DNA of 38,429 nt, taken from the IMG/VR virus record IMGVR_UViG_3300022305_000519, one strand, 5' to 3'. Below, piece after piece: positions 2,380-38,429 of this stretch; the first letter of the stretch is position 1, and each line of letters opens with the position of its first letter. The DNA comes from a virus. The notes beneath the pieces were generated by a model. It was not told the origin of the DNA and ran no database searches. It worked only from the letters and a program-made list of their open reading frames with translations. The translations under genes and the position numbers were made by a program.

Positions 2380-2419
2380 TCTGAACAACTGGAACGGCTG
2401 CAAAGCAAAGGAGCAACCA

Positions 2420-3223
2420 ATGAACAAGCCTGAACAACCCGATGCGCTGCGGCTGGCGGATGAGTACGTTGGCGCTGCAATTACTGCCCACGCAACAGGC
2501 GGTGAGTTTTATTATCGTAAGCGGGACGCAAAGAAAGCAGCACTTGAAGTCGAACTACGCCGCCTGCACGCAGAGAACGACCGTCTCCGCATCATCGCAG
2601 ACACCGACAAGGCCAGCGCAGATCACTGGCGTGCTGAGTGCGAGAAGCTGCGCCAATCGGTTGAGCCTGGGACAAAACTATACGCATCCCCACCCCTACA
2701 GGCAGACGCCAGCCAAGACGGATGCAACAACTGCCGAAACCCACTGTTCGCCGGGACAAAGTGCAAGAACTGCGGGAAAGTGTTTGAGCTGGCAGAGCAG
2801 CCCAAGGGCGGGGAGTCGGTGGCGTGGGCTGAGAGATACGCGAAGGTTCTTTTAAAGCTCAAAGACTCTCTTGCCGAAAGAGGCGGTCGTCCGGTCACCC
2901 CGGAGAAAGCTGCGCTGTGGGATGAGGCTTGGAGTGTTTACGAAAGCATGTTGGAGTGGGCGCATAACTCCCAGCAGCAGGCCGCATCCCCAGCAGCACC
3001 CGAGGCGTCAACTGTGGTGGAGCTGATGCGTGGCGTCTACCCGTACCCAGCAGCACCCCTACAGGTAGACGCCTGCAAGGTTCCGATGGAGGTGGTTACT
3101 TTCCTGCGTGGCGCTGGTACTCTGGATGGCGTTTGGTTTGGAAATCGGCATCCTACCGAACGAGGAGAGTTCTGGTGGCGCAAGTGGCTCTCAGCATCCC
3201 CAGCAGCACCTACACAGGAATAA
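2420..3223 (+). CDS. Modular hypothetical protein (267 aa): N-terminal coiled coil, CxxC...CxxC zinc ribbon, and repeated ASP(AA)PLQxDA linkers
   Basis: Internal ATG of tracked ORF 2360-3223, with AGGAG 7 nt upstream. Contains CNNCRNPLFAGTKCKNCGK. The linker peptides are encoded by dispersed DNA repeats. Confidence 0.75.
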   Translation: MNKPEQPDALRLADEYVGAAITAHATGGEFYYRKRDAKKAALEVELRRLHAENDRLRIIADTDKASADHWRAECEKLRQSVEPGTKLYASPPLQADASQDGCNNCRNPLFAGTKCKNCGKVFELAEQPKGGESVAWAERYAKVLLKLKDSLAERGGRPVTPEKAALWDEAWSVYESMLEWAHNSQQQAASPAAPEASTVVELMRGVYPYPAAPLQVDACKVPMEVVTFLRGAGTLDGVWFGNRHPTERGEFWWRKWLSASPAAPTQE

Positions 3224-3245
3224 AAAAGCCCCCTTAATTGGGGGC
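3222..3245 (-). terminator. Intrinsic terminator at the convergence point of the plus-strand and minus-strand operons
   Basis: Stem gccccc (3228-3233) / gggggc (3240-3245) with loop ttaatt. On the minus strand the stem is followed by TTTTTT (3227-3222). On the plus strand it is preceded by an A-run, so it may act in both directions. Confidence 0.75.
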
Positions 3246-3264
3246 CAAGTCTTTCGGCAACTGC

Positions 3265-3714
3265 TCATTTAGGCCATGCTTGAATCAAGGTTTGTCGCTC
3301 TGATTCAACTCGGTCAAGCGTTTCTGCCAAGCCAGTAATTTCTGTCGCGCACTGTCCGAATAGCTCTGAGACTGCTTTGCTTCGCTCACGGGTGGCATTG
3401 CAGGACTCGGAGGGCATTCTGTCGATGCCGTTAGCGAGTTCGAGGCGCAGCCGGTCAAGCTGATAGCGAGAATCAGCAGCATCAATCCTGAGTTGAGTTT
3501 CACGCTTCTTAGCTGCATTGAGTGCCTCGTCTTTCTTTGCTTGCAATCTATCCTGTTCGCGCTGTGCTGCTTCAAATAGCTTATGCGCTGCTTCGGATTG
3601 CTCAAACTTCATCGCTTCGATCTGCTCACCATATCTCCACGACTGCGCCTGCCATGCACCAGCAAAAGCGATTGCAGCTCCTAGAAAGCTAGCTGCTAGA
3701 TGGGTGTAGATCAA
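3265..3714 (-). CDS. i-spanin (Rz-like)
   Basis: N-terminal TM segment LAASFLGAAIAFAGAW, then a long charged coiled coil. It is the last gene of the lysis cassette and contains an embedded lipoprotein ORF. The TTG start overlaps the upstream TGA. Confidence 0.75.
   Translation of the reverse strand: MIYTHLAASFLGAAIAFAGAWQAQSWRYGEQIEAMKFEQSEAAHKLFEAAQREQDRLQAKKDEALNAAKKRETQLRIDAADSRYQLDRLRLELANGIDRMPSESCNATRERSKAVSELFGQCATEITGLAETLDRVESERQTLIQAWPK
3285..3518 (-). CDS. o-spanin (Rz1-like lipoprotein), fully embedded in the i-spanin gene in another frame
   Basis: Internal ATG of tracked ORF 3285-3605 gives MQLRSVKLNSGLMLLILAISLTGCASNS.... This has a signal peptide plus the lipobox LTGC, followed by a Pro-rich short mature part. 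Confidence 0.7.
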   Translation of the reverse strand: MQLRSVKLNSGLMLLILAISLTGCASNSLTASTECPPSPAMPPVSEAKQSQSYSDSARQKLLAWQKRLTELNQSDKP

Positions 3715-3860
3715 GGCTTGTATCCTGGTGTTTCAGGCTCTGGATAGACCGGCCTGCTATCGTATCGCTCTGTAACTTTGCTTTCCTCGTTACGCCATTT
3801 CCATAGTTCTCGTTGCAGTTGATGGCGAAGGCGTTTTCTGGTGTAGCGTTTCAGAGTCAT
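3711..3860 (-). CDS. Small basic protein (49 aa) between the endolysin and the spanins
   Basis: The ATG overlaps the endolysin TGA (TGATG) and the stop overlaps the spanin TTG start. No recognisable motif. Confidence 0.35.
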   Translation of the reverse strand: MTLKRYTRKRLRHQLQRELWKWRNEESKVTERYDSRPVYPEPETPGYKP

Positions 3861-4258
3861 CAGGCATAACTCCATAGTCCTGGTCTAGGCATTGTAGGAG
3901 AACTTTCGCAGGTATCAAGGTGAATAAATCTTCCTGATCCTTTTTGCTGAATGCCGATGCCTGTAAAACCTTGAGCGAGAGCGAGTTTAAGCAGCCTGTA
4001 AGCGTCTTTTCCTTGTACTGCTACGTCACACGCCTTACCTGTCGTATGAGCGCCTGTAGTGGCTTTCTTGGCCTCTATGGGGTGTGTCTTGTCCCTGTAC
4101 CCGCTGGTGATAGTCATTGAGCTACCATAGGCTAGGCGAAGTGCCAGCAGCTTGGACATGAATTCGTTGTCCATCTCGCACTTACCAGAGTGCTTACAGC
4201 GGAATTCGTACTCTCGAAAGTACGGAGCGTAATCAGCCCAATCTACCGTACTTTTCAT
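3860..4258 (-). CDS. Endolysin, peptidase M15-type (zinc D-Ala-D-Ala carboxypeptidase-like fold)
   Basis: EFRCKHSGKCEMDNEFMSKLLALRLAYGSSMTITSGYRD...GAHTTGKACDV matches the M15A/M15_3 pattern (SGYR ... H..G.A.D). Located in the lysis cassette. Confidence 0.8.
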   Translation of the reverse strand: MKSTVDWADYAPYFREYEFRCKHSGKCEMDNEFMSKLLALRLAYGSSMTITSGYRDKTHPIEAKKATTGAHTTGKACDVAVQGKDAYRLLKLALAQGFTGIGIQQKGSGRFIHLDTCESSPTMPRPGLWSYA

Positions 4259-4568
4259 TCAGGAATTCCTTAACGTGCATTCCACGAAACCAGAGCCATA
4301 GCCAGAAAGAAAACATGGACATGATTGCAATCATGATCGAGTCAAGCAATATGCGCATATCTCCGTGGAAAGCAGCCGCCATCATCCAAGCAGAAGACCC
4401 TACAGTACACATGATGAAAATCATGACGATGTTAGGTGAGCTTGTCGGTGCTGCTGTGGCCATGCTCATGAAGTGAGCAAACATCGCGGCTCCAATGATG
4501 AAAACCATCAACCGATGGAAGAAAAATGATGGCAATACATCTTGCCATGTAACGAATAGTTCATTCAT
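4233..4568 (-). CDS. Multi-pass membrane protein, holin or antiholin candidate (111 aa)
   Basis: The ATG at 4568 overlaps the upstream TGA (ATGA), with GAGGTGG upstream. The tracked ORF begins at a GTG at 4580. Three or four hydrophobic segments. Confidence 0.6.
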   Translation of the reverse strand: MNELFVTWQDVLPSFFFHRLMVFIIGAAMFAHFMSMATAAPTSSPNIVMIFIMCTVGSSAWMMAAAFHGDMRILLDSIMIAIMSMFSFWLWLWFRGMHVKEFLNEKYGRLG

Positions 4569-27411: not shown

Positions 27412-27573
27412 TTAATTCACATCTTGTGGGTAGTTATATCTAACCCATTGCGCCATTGCCTGCCCAATAACACCGCATCGAACTAAGTTATATAACTCGT
27501 CATCAGAGCATTTCTCTAGCTCTTGTTCTAGCTGTGCCATGAGCATGGCAATGGTGACTAGATCAGCGGTCAT
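27412..27573 (-). CDS. Small hypothetical protein (53 aa)
   Basis: ATGA overlap with the upstream H-NS-like gene. Below the track cutoff. Confidence 0.45.
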   Translation of the reverse strand: MTADLVTIAMLMAQLEQELEKCSDDELYNLVRCGVIGQAMAQWVRYNYPQDVN

Positions 27574-27749
27574 GCAATTCGATATTGTTCCTTATCCTTT
27601 CCCTGCAAGAACTTCGGCAAGCGACCGCGCCCGGCCCATGTTTCACCATTCGGCCCCTTGAACTTTACTGGAAGTGTGCGGCCTTTTAGCTTGCTAGGCG
27701 CTTTCTGTTGCACTTCGGTTACTTGTACGGTTTCTTGAGTCTGTTCCAT
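27570..27749 (-). CDS. Short H-NS-family DNA-binding-domain protein (59 aa; C-terminal domain only)
   Basis: Hand translation: MEQTQETVQVTEVQQKAPSKLKGRTLPVKFKGPNGETWAGRGRLPKFLQGKDKEQYRIA. It carries the core H-NS/MvaT/Bv3F motif (..G.tW.GrGr.Pkw/fl). Below the track cutoff. Confidence 0.65.
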   Translation of the reverse strand: MEQTQETVQVTEVQQKAPSKLKGRTLPVKFKGPNGETWAGRGRLPKFLQGKDKEQYRIA

Positions 27750-27863
27750 GTCAATCCTATTGGTTTATGAACTGTTATTTTAACACTCTTCCCATGTTTT
27801 TTCCACTGTTTAAACGATCAGTGTTTTATTAGGGTTTTTACTAGTAGAAAAAACATTTTGGAT

Positions 27864-27872
27864 TGGCATAAT
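27864..27872 (+). promoter_or_regulatory. Extended -10 promoter candidate (TGgCATAAT) for the plus-strand moron operon
   Basis: tggcataat read at 27864-27872, about 35 nt upstream of the first plus-strand gene. No good -35 element. Confidence 0.35.
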
Positions 27873-27905: not shown

Positions 27906-28097
27906 ATGCGAGTCATCATCAAAGACAAGGACACCGAAGCTGCTTACAAGTTTGCCGACCAATGGGCAAATACTGCTCAGGTTATGGCAGAGCAGCTTGA
28001 GGATGAAGGCACAATTCTTAGTGTTGAGGCATCTAAGAAATGGTATCGGATTATGGATGCTTTCCGCCAAGCCGCCGATGAAGTTGGCAAGGTCTAA
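27906..28097 (+). CDS. Hypothetical protein (63 aa), first gene of the plus-strand accessory operon
   Basis: A strong RBS within the motif CAACTAGGAG lies 7 nt upstream. The antisense ORF 27810-28070 lacks an RBS. Confidence 0.65.
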   Translation: MRVIIKDKDTEAAYKFADQWANTAQVMAEQLEDEGTILSVEASKKWYRIMDAFRQAADEVGKV

Positions 28098-28144: not shown

Positions 28145-28723
28145 ATGCAAACTACTCTCAATAAAATCCGTTCGCATGGTCCGTGTGCTAGTGGATGGAA
28201 AAAACTTCTCGCGCACCTGGGAAAGACTGAGGCAGACAACGAACCGCTGTCTATCCTCACCATTATTGAAAGCAACGGCCTTGATGACGCCTTGTGGTGC
28301 CTGCGTGCCGTAGACGGAAGCGATAAAGAGATTCGCTTGTTTGCCGTCTGGTGCGCCCGGCAAGTGCAGCACTTGATGACCGACAAGCGAAGTATTGATG
28401 CTCTTGATGTTGCCGAAAAATATGCATCAGGCATGGCTACTCGTGATGAATTGGAACGCGCGGAGTCTGCTGCGGAGTCTGCTGCGTGGTCTGCTGCGTG
28501 GTCTGCTGCGCGGTCTGCTGCGGAGTCTGCTGCGTGGTCTGCTGCGTGGTCTGCTGCGGAGTCTGCTGCGCGGTCTGCTGCGCGGTCTGCTGCGTGGTCT
28601 GCTGCGGAGTCTGCTGCGCGGTCTGCTGCGTGGTCTGCTGCGTGGTCTGCTGCGGAGTCTGCACAAAAAACAGAATTGATCCGTATTTGCAAGGAAATCG
28701 AATGCGCTTCCAACAAATCCTAG
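28145..28723 (+). CDS. Paralog A (192 aa): conserved N-terminal domain of about 105 aa plus 17 x [E/W/R]-S-A-A tandem repeats
   Basis: The N-terminus MQTTLNKIRSHGPCASGWKKLL...LWCLRAVDGSDKEIRLFAVWCARQVQHLM...ATRDELE aligns residue for residue with the product of 31234-31773. Confidence 0.8.
   Translation: MQTTLNKIRSHGPCASGWKKLLAHLGKTEADNEPLSILTIIESNGLDDALWCLRAVDGSDKEIRLFAVWCARQVQHLMTDKRSIDALDVAEKYASGMATRDELERAESAAESAAWSAAWSAARSAAESAAWSAAWSAAESAARSAARSAAWSAAESAARSAAWSAAWSAAESAQKTELIRICKEIECASNKS
28460..28663 (+). repeat. Perfect 12-nt tandem array, (gag|tgg|cgg)-tct-gct-gcg, 17 units
   Basis: Direct reading. Only the first two bases of each unit vary. There are no stops in any of the six frames. 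Confidence 0.95.
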
Positions 28724-28905
28724 ACCTTGCCCGTCACCATGCCGATAATGGTGCTGAAATGCAAACCTCTGCTGATCTGTGCATCCAAGAAGCTCTTGAA
28801 GCATGGCACGAAGGCAAATGGAACACTGCTAAACAGTGGGCTATTAAATCGCTCTCTCACTCTGTGGGAGTTCTTCATTCTGACTATATTGAGGCAAGCA
28901 AATGA
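28702..28905 (+). CDS. Hypothetical protein (67 aa)
   Basis: Internal ATG of tracked ORF 28486-28905, with AAGGA upstream. The N-terminal part of the tracked ORF is a repeat-frame artefact (VCC repeats). Confidence 0.6.
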   Translation: MRFQQILDLARHHADNGAEMQTSADLCIQEALEAWHEGKWNTAKQWAIKSLSHSVGVLHSDYIEASK

Positions 28906-29003
28906 GCTTCATCATCCTATCAGCATCTATCGGCCTGTTCTGCTACATCGCATGGCGTATCGTTGACCGTATCGCTACTGTGATAGTAGACGAACTGTTT
29001 TAA
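28902..29003 (+). CDS. Small single-TM protein (33 aa)
   Basis: ATGA overlap with the upstream stop. TM segment FIILSASIGLFCYIAWRIV. Followed by a terminator. Confidence 0.4.
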   Translation: MSFIILSASIGLFCYIAWRIVDRIATVIVDELF

Positions 29004-29020: not shown

Positions 29021-29048
29021 AAAGGCCCTTCGGGGCCTTTTTGTATTT
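29021..29048 (+). terminator. Intrinsic terminator ending the plus-strand accessory operon
   Basis: aaaggccc-ttcg-gggccttt hairpin followed by ttgtattt. It also faces the convergent TLP gene. Confidence 0.8.
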
Positions 29049-29172: not shown

Positions 29173-29994
29173 CTATCTTGCGTTAAACCGCTCTGCCACC
29201 AGTGGTTCAGCGCCATCAAAAATGACAGCCTCGCGGTTCGTCACAGTGCCAAGCGGCGGCATGTCAAGCGCGGCGCACACGGACCGTTCGACCACCAGCG
29301 CCGGGTTTGTGCGTGCCTCGTGCTTCGGTGGCAAACGGTCCAGTTCTTCGGTGCTGAACGGCACGCTCACGGTACGCCGCTGCACGTAGGCGCCACGCTT
29401 GAACAGCGGCGGGTAGTCGTTCCAGTTCACACCCTTAGCGTGCAGCATGTCATGCTTCTGTGGGTTGTTCTTGCCCGTCAGTGCCTTATGGCTGTAGTGC
29501 GCCGAAGCTGCCATGCTCACGCTGTTCTTAGTGGCGTCCCACTCGCGCCACAGAAACACATTCGCGCCTTCGGCCCGATTCGGCACATTCCACACGCGGG
29601 CGTCAAATGTCGGCAGGCGATTAGCATATTGCGGCATGCGTTCCAGCACCAAGCGGTAGAAGATCAACGTGGCCTGGGCTGCAAGCTGGCTTGTCATCTT
29701 CGCCACGCGGCCATCAAACCAAATCTGGCTCTGTGTCGTGCTGGCGTGCCAAGCCAGTGTGATTTCGTCGCTCTGCGTGTAGCCCATGCAGGCACCGGTG
29801 TCGCGCACCAGTGCGGCGGTCGTGCCCAGCATGCAGCCAGAAAAACCGGAATCGAATGGGCGCTCCATACCTTTTGTAAAGCTGTGGAATGCGCGGCCAT
29901 CAATCCGCGCCATGGCTGGCAGCAGCGGCATCAAGCGCCGCCCGGCTTCCATGCCCTCGTACAGTTTCATTCGGTCGCCTAAATCATCTTTCAT
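29173..29994 (-). CDS. Thg1-like protein (TLP), tRNA(His) guanylyltransferase-family 3'-5' nucleotidyltransferase
   Basis: Family blocks present: GDRMKLYE, ARIDGRAFHSFTKG..RPFD, GYTQSDEITL, FDGRVAKMTSQLAAQAT, FDARVWNVP, FLWREWDATKNS and KGVNWNDYPPLFKRG. The metal-binding Asp (DGR) and the acidic pair (SDE) are both retained. Confidence 0.9.
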   Translation of the reverse strand: MKDDLGDRMKLYEGMEAGRRLMPLLPAMARIDGRAFHSFTKGMERPFDSGFSGCMLGTTAALVRDTGACMGYTQSDEITLAWHASTTQSQIWFDGRVAKMTSQLAAQATLIFYRLVLERMPQYANRLPTFDARVWNVPNRAEGANVFLWREWDATKNSVSMAASAHYSHKALTGKNNPQKHDMLHAKGVNWNDYPPLFKRGAYVQRRTVSVPFSTEELDRLPPKHEARTNPALVVERSVCAALDMPPLGTVTNREAVIFDGAEPLVAERFNAR

Positions 29995-30715: not shown

Positions 30716-31036
30716 CTAACTTGTTGCTCGATCTTGCCTGCGGTTGCTTGCTTCCTGGCTTCTCCACACTTCGATTCGTAGCTCTGCCGCTGTCATCTGC
30801 CACTTCATCGTTTCCTCTGCCTCTACAGCAGCCCTAAGCCCCTCTAGTAGCTCTCGGTACTCTGGATGCGCGTAGGCATACGCTTCTTTGGCTGCAATCG
30901 TTCCTTCTGTCTCGTTCATCAGCAGGCTTTTCTTGCTTCTCAGGAAGTTCTCGATGTACACGCGGTTAGCCTTGGCCTGTGCAAACTTTGGCGCGTTTTC
31001 TATTAGGAAGTTGACTGCTTTGTTAGGGTCAGTCAT
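30716..31036 (-). CDS. Hypothetical helical protein (106 aa)
   Basis: Clean ORF, coupled to the upstream 70-aa gene (8-nt overlap). Confidence 0.7.
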   Translation of the reverse strand: MTDPNKAVNFLIENAPKFAQAKANRVYIENFLRSKKSLLMNETEGTIAAKEAYAYAHPEYRELLEGLRAAVEAEETMKWQMTAAELRIEVWRSQEASNRRQDRATS

Positions 31037-31241
31037 TTTTCATTGCTGCGTCAAATTCAATCGCAGATTTTGCAATTTGCGTCATTTGGATATCAGATAA
31101 GCGATTACTAAAAATCTTAGTAGACCCACCCTTATAAATTGCCATCAACGCGCCAAGTGCAGAATTTCTTTGCTGTTGCAGTTCCTCCACCATGCGCTTT
31201 AGGCTGTCCAGGGCTTCGGCTTCGACTTCGATCTTAGGCAT
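31029..31241 (-). CDS. Hypothetical protein (70 aa, MPKIEVEAEALDSLKRMVEEL...)
   Basis: Internal ATG of tracked ORF 31029-31490, with AGGAGG 6 nt upstream. The PT-rich N-terminus of the tracked ORF is a repeat-frame artefact. Confidence 0.65.
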   Translation of the reverse strand: MPKIEVEAEALDSLKRMVEELQQQRNSALGALMAIYKGGSTKIFSNRLSDIQMTQIAKSAIEFDAAMKND

Positions 31242-31773
31242 TGTCAGCCTCCTGGCAGATTTCACGCAGGCGCTTTTCTTGGGAGTAGTAGGCGGCGTAG
31301 GCGTCGGCGGCGTAGGCGTCGGCGTAGGCGTAGGCGTAGGCGTAGGAGGAGGCGTAGGCGGCGGCGTCGGCGGCGTAGGCGTCGGCGTCGGCGTAGGCGG
31401 CGTCGGCGGCGTAGGCGGCGGCTGAGTCGGCGTAGGCGGCGTAGGCGGCGGATCGTGCCGACTCCAATTCATCCCGCGTTGCCATTCCATTCGCGTATCG
31501 CTCCGCTACATCCAGCGCACGAATACTACGTTCGTCTTTCATCAGGTGCTGTACTTGTCGGGCGCACCACACAGCATAAAGCCGGATTTCCTTGTCGTGT
31601 CCGTCCACAGCACGCAGGCACCAAATAGCATCGCGCAAGCCGTTGCTGTCAATGATGGTAGCGATGCTGATTTCTTCGTCATCTGCCTCAGTCTTTCCAA
31701 GGTTACGCAGTAACTTTGCCCATCCAGAATTGCATGGGCCTTTGGCTCGGATTTTGTTGAGGGTGGTTTTCAT
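31234..31773 (-). CDS. Paralog B (179 aa): same N-terminal domain as 28145-28723 plus an Ala/Tyr/Asp dipeptide-repeat C-terminus
   Basis: MKTTLNKIRAKGPCNSGWAKLL...IWCLRAVDGHDKEIRLYAVWCARQVQHLM...ATRDELE. The RBS lies within CAACTAGGAG. Confidence 0.8.
   Translation of the reverse strand: MKTTLNKIRAKGPCNSGWAKLLRNLGKTEADDEEISIATIIDSNGLRDAIWCLRAVDGHDKEIRLYAVWCARQVQHLMKDERSIRALDVAERYANGMATRDELESARSAAYAAYADSAAAYAADAAYADADAYAADAAAYASSYAYAYAYADAYAADAYAAYYSQEKRLREICQEADNA
31285..31450 (-). repeat. 6-nt-period tandem array (plus-strand gcgtag/gcgtcg/gcggcg units; minus strand GCC-TAC / GCC-GAC / GCC-GCC)
   Basis: Direct reading. The region is open in several frames, which produces the PT-rich and GV-rich shadow ORFs. 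Confidence 0.9.
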
Positions 31774-38216: not shown

Positions 38217-38429
38217 ATGAAACAGAAAATCTTCCATCGTTCCAATAGCGCAGTTATCTTTGAATGTGAAGTGCCTGACGAGAATAGCGGAATGGCAATG
38301 CGCTATGCGCTTGAGAAAGCTACGCAAAGCGGTGCCGACCTGATCGGTGCCGACCTGATCGGTGCCGACCTGATCGGTGCCTACCTGAGCGGTGCCAACC
38401 TGATCGGTGCTTACCTGAGCGGTGCCTAC
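38217..38429 (+). CDS. Pentapeptide-repeat protein, N-terminal part (3'-partial in this window; continues at nt 2/53-559)
   Basis: ATG at 38217 with an AGGAG RBS. Translation [71 protein letters not shown]. The frame runs off the end of the window. Confidence 0.85.
38334..38429 (+). repeat. 15-nt tandem repeat array (start of the pentapeptide array)
   Basis: ggtgccgacctgatc x3, then variant units. The last 52 nt are identical to nt 1-52. Confidence 0.95.

Follow-up and report, generated by a model that had tools for sequence, protein, structure and literature searches.

A 12-nucleotide coding minisatellite under concerted evolution in the phage protein family phrog_18326

How does a phage protein come to carry a C-terminal half built from one 12-nucleotide (nt) unit repeated in frame, and what could such a half be for? 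The question is raised by a gene, here called paralog A, of the IMG/VR virus record IMGVR_UViG_3300022305_000519, whose whole stretch of 38,429 nt is referred to below as the window. The window spans an entire circular phage genome: contig L005 matches it with 100% identity over 20.3 kb, passing from the window end into the window start, and the five contigs that carry the paralog A protein are 100% identical redundant assemblies of this one circular genome. The answer that we favour, with moderate confidence when taken as a whole, is that paralog A is an accessory protein of the family phrog_18326, in which an array shaped by concerted evolution would form a helical stalk on a binder with an Imm5-like scaffold.

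Paralog A is composed of a conserved N-terminal domain (N-domain), the array and a short conserved tail (Table 1). Within the array, unit positions 1-3 and 6-11 are identical in 17/17 units, and position 12 is T in 16 units and A, a synonymous change, in the last one. Otherwise variation is confined to position 4 (T, G or C) and position 5 (G or A), and the variable codons are GAG, TGG and CGG. When 28460-28663 is split into 12-mers, the residue order E E W W R E W W E R R W E R W W E, read in a preliminary description of this DNA, is reproduced exactly; in the phase NNG-TCT-GCT-GCG, which starts from 28463, there are 16 perfect units and a 17th that reads GAG-TCT-GCA-CAA (E-S-A-Q). Tandem Repeats Finder reports the array with period 12 (16.5 copies, score 298) and with period 48 (4.2 copies, 94% matches, score 357). 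A 48-nt, four-unit super-period in the order of units was however non-significant after correction for the lags tested (P=0.11) and was not retained. The unit pattern GCGNNGTCTGCTGCG has 16 exact matches within the array; with up to two mismatches it occurs 19 times in the window against 1.37 expected, a count reached in 0/100 shuffles. From k=49 upwards every k-mer in the array is unique, so that ordinary assemblers are able to resolve it.

The match to the profile hidden Markov model of phrog_18326 (E=2.2e-56, 191.7 bits; residues 2-183 aligned with positions 4-191 of the 203 in the profile) makes paralog A one further, unexceptional member of a catalogued and uncharacterised phage family. 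The family is large. More than 3,655 homologs were found in a set of 5.8 billion proteins, none of them meaningfully named; HMMER over 1.84 billion 50%-identity representatives returned 837 proteins at E<=1e-30 and 17,852 at E<=1e-3; and IMG/VR holds at least 572 family loci. Members occur in cultured phages of Pseudomonas (AF, PPpW-3), Burkholderia (Bcep176), Erwinia, Vibrio and Curvibacter. In 185,579 bacterial and archaeal species genomes there are 61 family loci, mostly on phage-sized contigs of metagenome-assembled genomes or in prophage-like regions, often of Betaproteobacteria, and the family is thus essentially phage-borne.

Every member read has the same three-part layout: a helical N-domain of about 105 amino acids (aa), an AA-x-x array of variable length and a tail Q-E-K-x-L-R-x-x-C. 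The N-domain motifs first picked out in paralog A alone, PC..GW.KLL, LWCLRAV and AVWCARQV, fall in invariant or near-invariant columns of the family alignment. A Cys3-His zinc site (C14, C52, C70, H76) was considered and dropped, C70 being Ala or Ser in AF and PPpW-3, and C14 and C52 being absent from the Bcep176 homolog. The array had at first been presented as if it were peculiar to this gene. This was mistaken, since equally perfect arrays are found in Pseudomonas phages AF (18 units) and PPpW-3 (16 units) and in many viral contigs (22 units in L065). AF gp46 (AFV50659.1), PPpW-3 ORF54 (BAO20654.1) and Bcep176 gp36 (ABA60037.1) are homologous to paralog A over the full length and share both the layout and the homogenisation at the DNA level. 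What distinguishes paralog A is the content of its unit, with Ser (TCT) at the fourth position of the motif (x4) and Glu (GAG) among the states of the third (x3), whereas the usual residues in the family are Ala or Asp at x4 and Trp, Arg or Gly at x3. Arrays rich in AAxS are scarce, at least six such units being present in 9/246 genes.

Some related sequences depart from this simple picture. The homolog of Curvibacter phage P26059A (KY981271.1 64403-64756, hit H12) is labelled ‘tail fiber protein’, probably a mis-annotation due to the Ala-rich repeat. A 289-aa coding sequence (CDS) of MW202621.1 (L002) has a long non-homologous N-terminal extension and looks frameshifted after about 10 array residues. 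Two other families, phrog_3416 (E=2e-9) and phrog_8332 (E=1e-6), match paralog A at residues 101-179 only, that is over array and tail, so the repeat-tail module seems to be present behind other N-terminal domains in other phage families.

What keeps the units alike? Within-array nucleotide diversity was computed over 41 arrays with at least six in-phase units. Its mean is 0-0.18 at third codon positions (0.04 for the third base of the first Ala codon, 0.16 for that of the second, 0.17-0.18 for those of the two x codons), against 0.56 at the first base of x3 and 0.50 at the second base of x4. Codon choice tells the same story when arrays are set against the N-domains that precede them: GGG makes up 98% of Gly codons at x3 in arrays vs 18% in N-domains, AGG and CGG together 94% of Arg codons at x3 vs 25%, and GCC and GCT together 99% of Ala codons at x4 vs 49%. 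At the level of the family, x3 is thus NGG with one free base, where T gives Trp, A or C gives Arg and G gives Gly, and x4 is G[A/C]Y (GMY), which gives Asp or Ala. From phage to phage, consensus units carry different synonymous bases (GCTGCG, GCCGCA, GCAGCC and others). What is conserved is thus the peptide pattern, and homogenisation of the DNA takes place array by array. These comparisons reveal an in-frame coding minisatellite under concerted evolution: synonymous sites are identical within arrays and different between phages because units are gained, lost and converted, for which slippage in replication or unequal recombination would be the source.

The closest relative, contig L147 with its protein P0002, offers a direct contrast. 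It is 90.3% identical to the window over the 5′ untranslated region and N-domain and 89.3% over the tail and downstream gene, and the last 16 residues of paralog A, ELIRICKEIECASNKS, are identical in P0002. Between these flanks, L147 carries 6 units GCG-NGG-GCT-GCT vs the 17 units GCG-NNG-TCT-GCT of paralog A. The base that distinguishes TCT from GCT (Ser or Ala) is T in 17/17 window units and in 0/6 L147 units, and GGG (Gly) units stand in L147 where the window has GAG (Glu), a single-nucleotide step. The claim that units have been homogenised with variation left to one residue in four is borne out here, and by the pattern of the whole family. Moreover, the comparisons show homogenisation to be a continuous and general process and not one recent event.

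Array length (0 to 134 aa in the family, median 62) and unit order evolve much more quickly than the sequence on either side. Among 52 pairs with an N-domain identity of 95% or more, arrays average 64% identity and are of equal length in only 13%; among close pairs sharing the C-terminus, 9/13 non-zero length differences are multiples of 4 aa vs 24% in distant pairs (P=6e-4), the pairs in both statistics not being phylogenetically independent.

The same phage carries a second member, paralog B, whose N-domain is 79% identical to that of paralog A and whose array is quite different (Table 1). In this array 55/56 codons fit [G/T][C/A]C, with GCC (Ala), GAC (Asp), TCC (Ser) and TAC (Tyr) all represented; the remaining codon is TCA (Ser), and Ala is encoded by GCC throughout. 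Unlike that of paralog A, the array is acidic and Tyr-rich and has no Arg. An open reading frame (ORF) rich in Pro and Thr at 31029..31490 (-) is mostly the paralog B repeat read in another frame, and the Joint Genome Institute (JGI) gene call within it comprises the last ~70 codons only (31029..31241).

Such multiplication is frequent. Tandem paralogs are common in the family, and the commonest gene downstream of a family member is another family copy. On contig L015 (IMGVR_UViG_3300033076_000420) four copies lie head to tail at about 2400-4500; L007, L024, L054, L132 and the contig behind L059/L061 also hold several, and across these multi-copy phages there are 2-4 copies with a different array in each. 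By analogy, such loci resemble a homogeneous polyimmunity locus. Family members are placed amid small early genes, near repressor, ERF/exonuclease, primase and methylase genes.

If the array is helical, its period has consequences for the surface. At the standard 100 degrees per residue, a four-residue period would put Trp, Arg and Glu at i/i+4 on a stripe winding 40 degrees per unit. Trp-Arg and Glu-Arg pairs at this spacing are known helix-stabilising contacts and would be allowed by the arrangement, but it would be incompatible with a canonical heptad coiled coil, in which a strict four-residue period keeps no single face in register. In the AlphaFold2 model of paralog A, made from a 118-sequence alignment, mean predicted local distance difference test (pLDDT) is 88 and predicted template modelling score (pTM) 0.73 for the full protein, and pLDDT reaches 96.4 for the N-domain modelled alone. 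Six short N-domain helices are followed by helices 100-139 and 145-191, the array being predicted as two antiparallel helices of lower confidence with a turn near residues 140-144 (pLDDT 60-68). With the array predicted helical, the stripe geometry proposed at the outset stands. A helical array is credible in view of the model, because the sequence is about 50% Ala. In Ala-based model helices, type I antifreeze proteins and the antiparallel coiled coils called ‘alacoils’, a very high Ala content likewise favours helix; alacoils and antifreeze proteins however have 7- or 11-residue periods, whereas that of the paralog A array is strictly 4.

Searches with the model gave matches among viral proteins. 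Foldseek against predicted viral structures (BFVD) returned uncharacterised Caudovirales proteins and also an ‘Imm-5-like domain-containing protein’ (A0A6J5RNF9; E=8.3e-4, template modelling scores 0.48/0.45, 124 columns, 25% identity), a comparison between predicted structures only. In the PDB, Foldseek found no significant match, with best E values of 1.0 for the full model and 2.7 for the N-domain model, and the family profile had no match to PDB sequences at E<=1. Weak PDB matches to AcrIF25, to chain B of the 7jtu T6S cytidine deaminase toxin entry and to the BiaA and VbhA antitoxins are non-significant and were not used.

The preliminary description had likened the N-domain to Ala/Trp-rich helical-repeat proteins of bacterial immunity-type and hypothetical families. 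The family meant is most likely Imm5_like (PF21805) or Imm5 (PF14423); the likeness holds for a minority of members, and paralog A itself remains below threshold. Imm5_like is reached by 6/150 diverse members (4%; best E=6.2e-10) and by 1/118 close members, and Imm5 by 3/150 diverse members. One relative, P0063, scores 24.7 bits vs the 25-bit Imm5_like cut-off over residues 61-172, which cover the last two N-domain helices, array and tail. Imm5_like gave no hit for paralog A, paralog B or the AF, PPpW-3 and Bcep176 proteins, even at E<=10. The link to Imm5_like/Imm5 thus appears real but marginal. Imm5 was delineated from its genomic neighbourhood, as a mostly alpha-helical protein giving immunity to toxins of the DYW-clade deaminase and CdiA-CT kinds, and it has been proposed to be a scaffold that binds several unrelated toxins (Zhang et al. 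2012, PMC3482391; Iyer et al. 2011, PMC3239186). The phage family shares with it the mostly alpha-helical character, and its tandem paralogs recall polyimmunity loci; it differs by an extra N-terminal part of ~60 residues and by being phage-borne instead of belonging to toxin-immunity loci. No toxin gene was found beside family members, paralog A lying in an early or accessory region of the phage. Without a toxin or a conserved neighbour, we treat the family as a peripheral relative of Imm5 and not as a member.

What would such a protein do? Its placement in an islet of small genes, the early-gene placement of its homologs, the multiplication of paralogs, the in-frame diversification and the link to a toxin-binding scaffold together point to an accessory rather than a core protein. 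Our best guess for its function is a counter-defence or antitoxin binder. Paralog A would be a cytoplasmic, stoichiometric binder or neutraliser on an Imm5-like scaffold, expressed from an early or accessory operon, and its target would be a host toxin or defence effector. The array would fold as long Ala-based helices, paired in an antiparallel hairpin so that the tail comes back to the N-domain. As it would serve as a helical stalk, gain or loss of units would change stalk length and surface, and array turnover and paralog multiplication may reflect diversifying pressure from the target.

Several results weigh against this proposal. Scans of paralog A, paralog B and the phage homologs with Pfam, NCBIfam and PADLOC gave nothing meaningful, and the share of diverse members that reach Imm5_like is low. 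A conserved neighbour was sought as partner or toxin and none accompanies the family. Literature searches on Imm5-like proteins, peptide repeats and the cultured phages returned no functional data and no characterised homolog; a transcriptomics paper on Bcep176 reports host genes only. The turn falls inside a perfectly periodic sequence, which leaves the hairpin geometry uncertain, and the best viral structural match superposes poorly over the array (root-mean-square deviation 20 Å), so that the tertiary arrangement of the array is uncertain too. No one surface chemistry is preserved, given that the paralog B array contains Tyr and Asp but lacks Arg. The non-independence of the pairs compared also counts here.

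The main rival to the binder is a neutral low-complexity linker, in which N-domain and tail would be the functional parts and the array a tolerated, slippage-prone, Ala-rich helical spacer. We consider it unlikely, though a serious contender. The wide range of array lengths, down to none, would suit a spacer, as would the radical difference between paralogs of one phage (E/W/R/S vs A/D/S/Y) and the lower pLDDT of the array. The residues at variable sites are single-nucleotide neighbours (NGG, GMY), which looks driven by mutation rather than by chemistry. However, the array is retained in nearly all members across hundreds of diverged clusters, and exposed Trp, which occupies about one third of the x3 positions, would be costly for a spacer. 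Above all, non-synonymous sites stay heterogeneous while synonymous sites are homogenised, whereas drift combined with conversion should homogenise both.

The possibility raised early on that copy number and order differ between virions amounts to a contingency-type locus with frequent slippage, used for bet-hedging. The array does outpace its flanks between related phages, mostly by whole units. On the other hand, a single version of the array was assembled, the five contigs being redundant; with k-mers unique from k=49, a mixture of variants could have assembled separately. When metagenome and viral collections were scanned for exact copies of the array flanks, no further representative of the lineage came up, and these scans did not recover the source contig either. 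On/off phase variation is excluded, the 12-nt unit being in frame and inside the CDS, and 12-nt in-frame units slip far less often than contingency repeats of 1-4 nt. We thus regard bet-hedging by slippage as improbable.

Lower still we place a genuine polymorphic-toxin immunity protein of the Imm5 kind, which would shield the infected cell or lysogen from a toxin of deaminase or CdiA-CT type. In its favour are the marginal Imm5_like and Imm5 matches in relatives, the match between predicted structures to the viral Imm-5-like protein, the precedent of Imm5 as an alpha-helical scaffold for several toxins, where the association is itself genomic only, and the resemblance of tandem paralogs to polyimmunity loci. 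Against it, paralog A fails both Pfam models, the family is phage-borne with the few bacterial and archaeal loci counted above, there is neither an adjacent toxin nor a conserved neighbour, and the Imm5_like match leaves out the first ~60 N-domain residues. Taken together, direct toxin immunity is a doubtful reading.

Could a site-directed mutator act on the NNG codon instead? As in the variable regions of diversity-generating retroelements (DGRs), variation is focused on one or two nucleotides of each unit, in codons (NGG, GMY) that cannot become stops at the variable base. The likeness ends there. No second, template copy of the unit exists anywhere in the genome, and no Pfam reverse-transcriptase match is present among the JGI gene calls of window 18145-38429, the part of the genome scanned. 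In 17 units only 3/16 possible NNG states occur, the variable site of the family takes all four bases with no adenine-specific signature, whole units are shuffled, and the unit-wide fixation of G to T is explained by conversion. A DGR is effectively refuted by the lack of template repeat, of reverse transcriptase in the annotated half and of adenine bias, and targeted hypermutation by any route is very improbable. Scarcely credible as well is an assembly artefact or a non-coding repeat (iterons, recombination signal) open by chance, for although the sole source is a short-read metagenome assembly and none of the six frames is interrupted within the array, its k-mers become unique at k=49, cultured phages have perfect arrays in the same layout, the array frame joins conserved N-domain to conserved tail, and units differ synonymously between phages with the peptide pattern kept.

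Rapidly evolving in-frame tandem repeats have a precedent in the coding variable-number tandem repeats of microbial surface proteins. Another precedent is the amino-acid tandem repeats of Borg elements, which Schoelmerich et al. (PMC9879509) describe as perfect, in frame, recently formed and rapidly gained and lost. They share with the paralog A array perfect or near-perfect in-frame repetition of nucleotides and fast turnover between relatives. The Borg repeats are reported to form intrinsically disordered regions and to arise at many unrelated sites, whereas the phage array is predicted to be helical and occupies one fixed site, with AA-x-x across hundreds of lineages.

Paralog A lies in a four-gene islet on the plus strand (63 aa, paralog A, 67 aa and 33 aa) flanked by minus-strand blocks, and the promoter-like site falls within the AT-rich divergent intergenic region upstream of it (Table 1). 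The 63-aa gene has no PHROG match and is not conserved in the contig of the closest relative, L147. The 67-aa gene has no PHROG match either and is not conserved across the family; it is kept beside the L147 homolog at about 89% nucleotide identity. Similarity to L147 begins sharply at about 28106, ~40 nt 5′ of the paralog A start, with 43% identity before and 90% after, an abrupt change from which we infer that paralog A and the 67-aa ORF form a cassette that moves as one and has a mosaic boundary. Against GenBank phages, a megablast of the 6 kb that surround paralog A gave no match. The last islet gene encodes the strongly hydrophobic peptide MSFIILSASIGLFCYIAWRIVDRIATVIVDELF, possibly a small membrane protein.

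Table 1. Coordinates of paralog A, its islet and paralog B in the window
Feature	Position	Strand	Length or composition	Basis or remark
Promoter-like site	27845..27872	+	TAGAAA-16-CATAAT, TG before -10 hexamer	consensus scan only
First islet gene	27906..28097	+	63 aa	ORF and JGI gene call
Paralog A CDS	28145..28723	+	192 aa	phrog_18326 member
Paralog A, conserved helical N-domain	28145..28459	+	residues 1-105	near-invariant alignment columns
Paralog A, in-frame array	28460..28663	+	17 x 12 nt, GCG-NNG-TCT-GCT = A-[E/W/R]-S-A	
Paralog A, conserved C-terminal tail and stop codon	28664..28723	+	QKTELIRICKEIECASNKS	fits family consensus Q-E-x-E-L-R-R-I-C
Gene overlapping paralog A 3′ end	28702..28905	+	67 aa	JGI call
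Final islet gene, hydrophobic ORF	28902..29003	+	33 aa	JGI call
Intrinsic-terminator-like hairpin, then T run	29021..29040	+	AAAGGCCC-TTCG-GGGCCTTT	pattern match only; ends islet
Paralog B	31234..31773	-	179 aa	N-domain 79% identical to paralog A, related tail, different array
Paralog B array	31282..31449	-	56 codons	read from sequence; Tandem Repeats Finder periods 6, 12, 18

The genes around the islet have features of their own. Adjoining the divergent promoter region and facing the islet, a 59-aa protein (27570..27749, -) has a Pfam Histone_HNS match (JGI precomputed) and belongs to phrog_10171; it may be a phage H-NS-like silencer or counter-silencer. Directly after the islet terminator comes a gene for a Thg1-like tRNA-His guanylyltransferase (29173..29994, -; phrog_4717 E=4e-81, Pfam Thg1 by JGI call), and ARAGORN found no tRNA gene in the genome that carries it. 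A pentapeptide-repeat gene spans the circular junction, from 38217..38429 into 1..>280 (+), and lies at 20073-20456 of L005. Its protein is made of units A[D/N/Y]L[S/I/R]G encoded by near-perfect 15-nt DNA repeats, so that it is the third gene of this phage with a tandem array at the DNA level. The contig end falls inside this array and the redundant contigs vary from 38,429 to 38,631 bp, so that the assembled copy number probably cannot be taken as the true one. Qnr and MfpA are examples of pentapeptide-repeat proteins that mimic DNA.

For phage biology, the pattern in the family is more useful than the single gene: an abundant accessory protein has a C-terminal half that homogenises itself and turns over fast. 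The searchable literature yielded no description of such a family-wide homogenising array with single-nucleotide variable sites. Genes of this kind get mis-annotated, and their arrays also yield spurious ORFs in other frames. A bolder reading, which we put forward very tentatively and think unlikely, is that recombination in the array would generate diversity for a phage counter-defence binder, which would thereby track variable host toxins or immune effectors. A homogenised 12-nt scaffold with one or two stop-proof variable nucleotides (NGG, GMY) would let unit shuffling produce new lengths and new patterns of Trp, Arg and Gly (Glu) on a helical stalk, and tandem paralogs would extend the repertoire. 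If true, phages would have a third way to diversify proteins in a targeted manner, in addition to DGRs and the exchange of tail-fibre cassettes. If the array is indeed an evolvable interaction surface, the family would be a good counter-defence or antitoxin candidate, and one that can be approached experimentally in existing phage-host pairs with AF, PPpW-3 and Bcep176.

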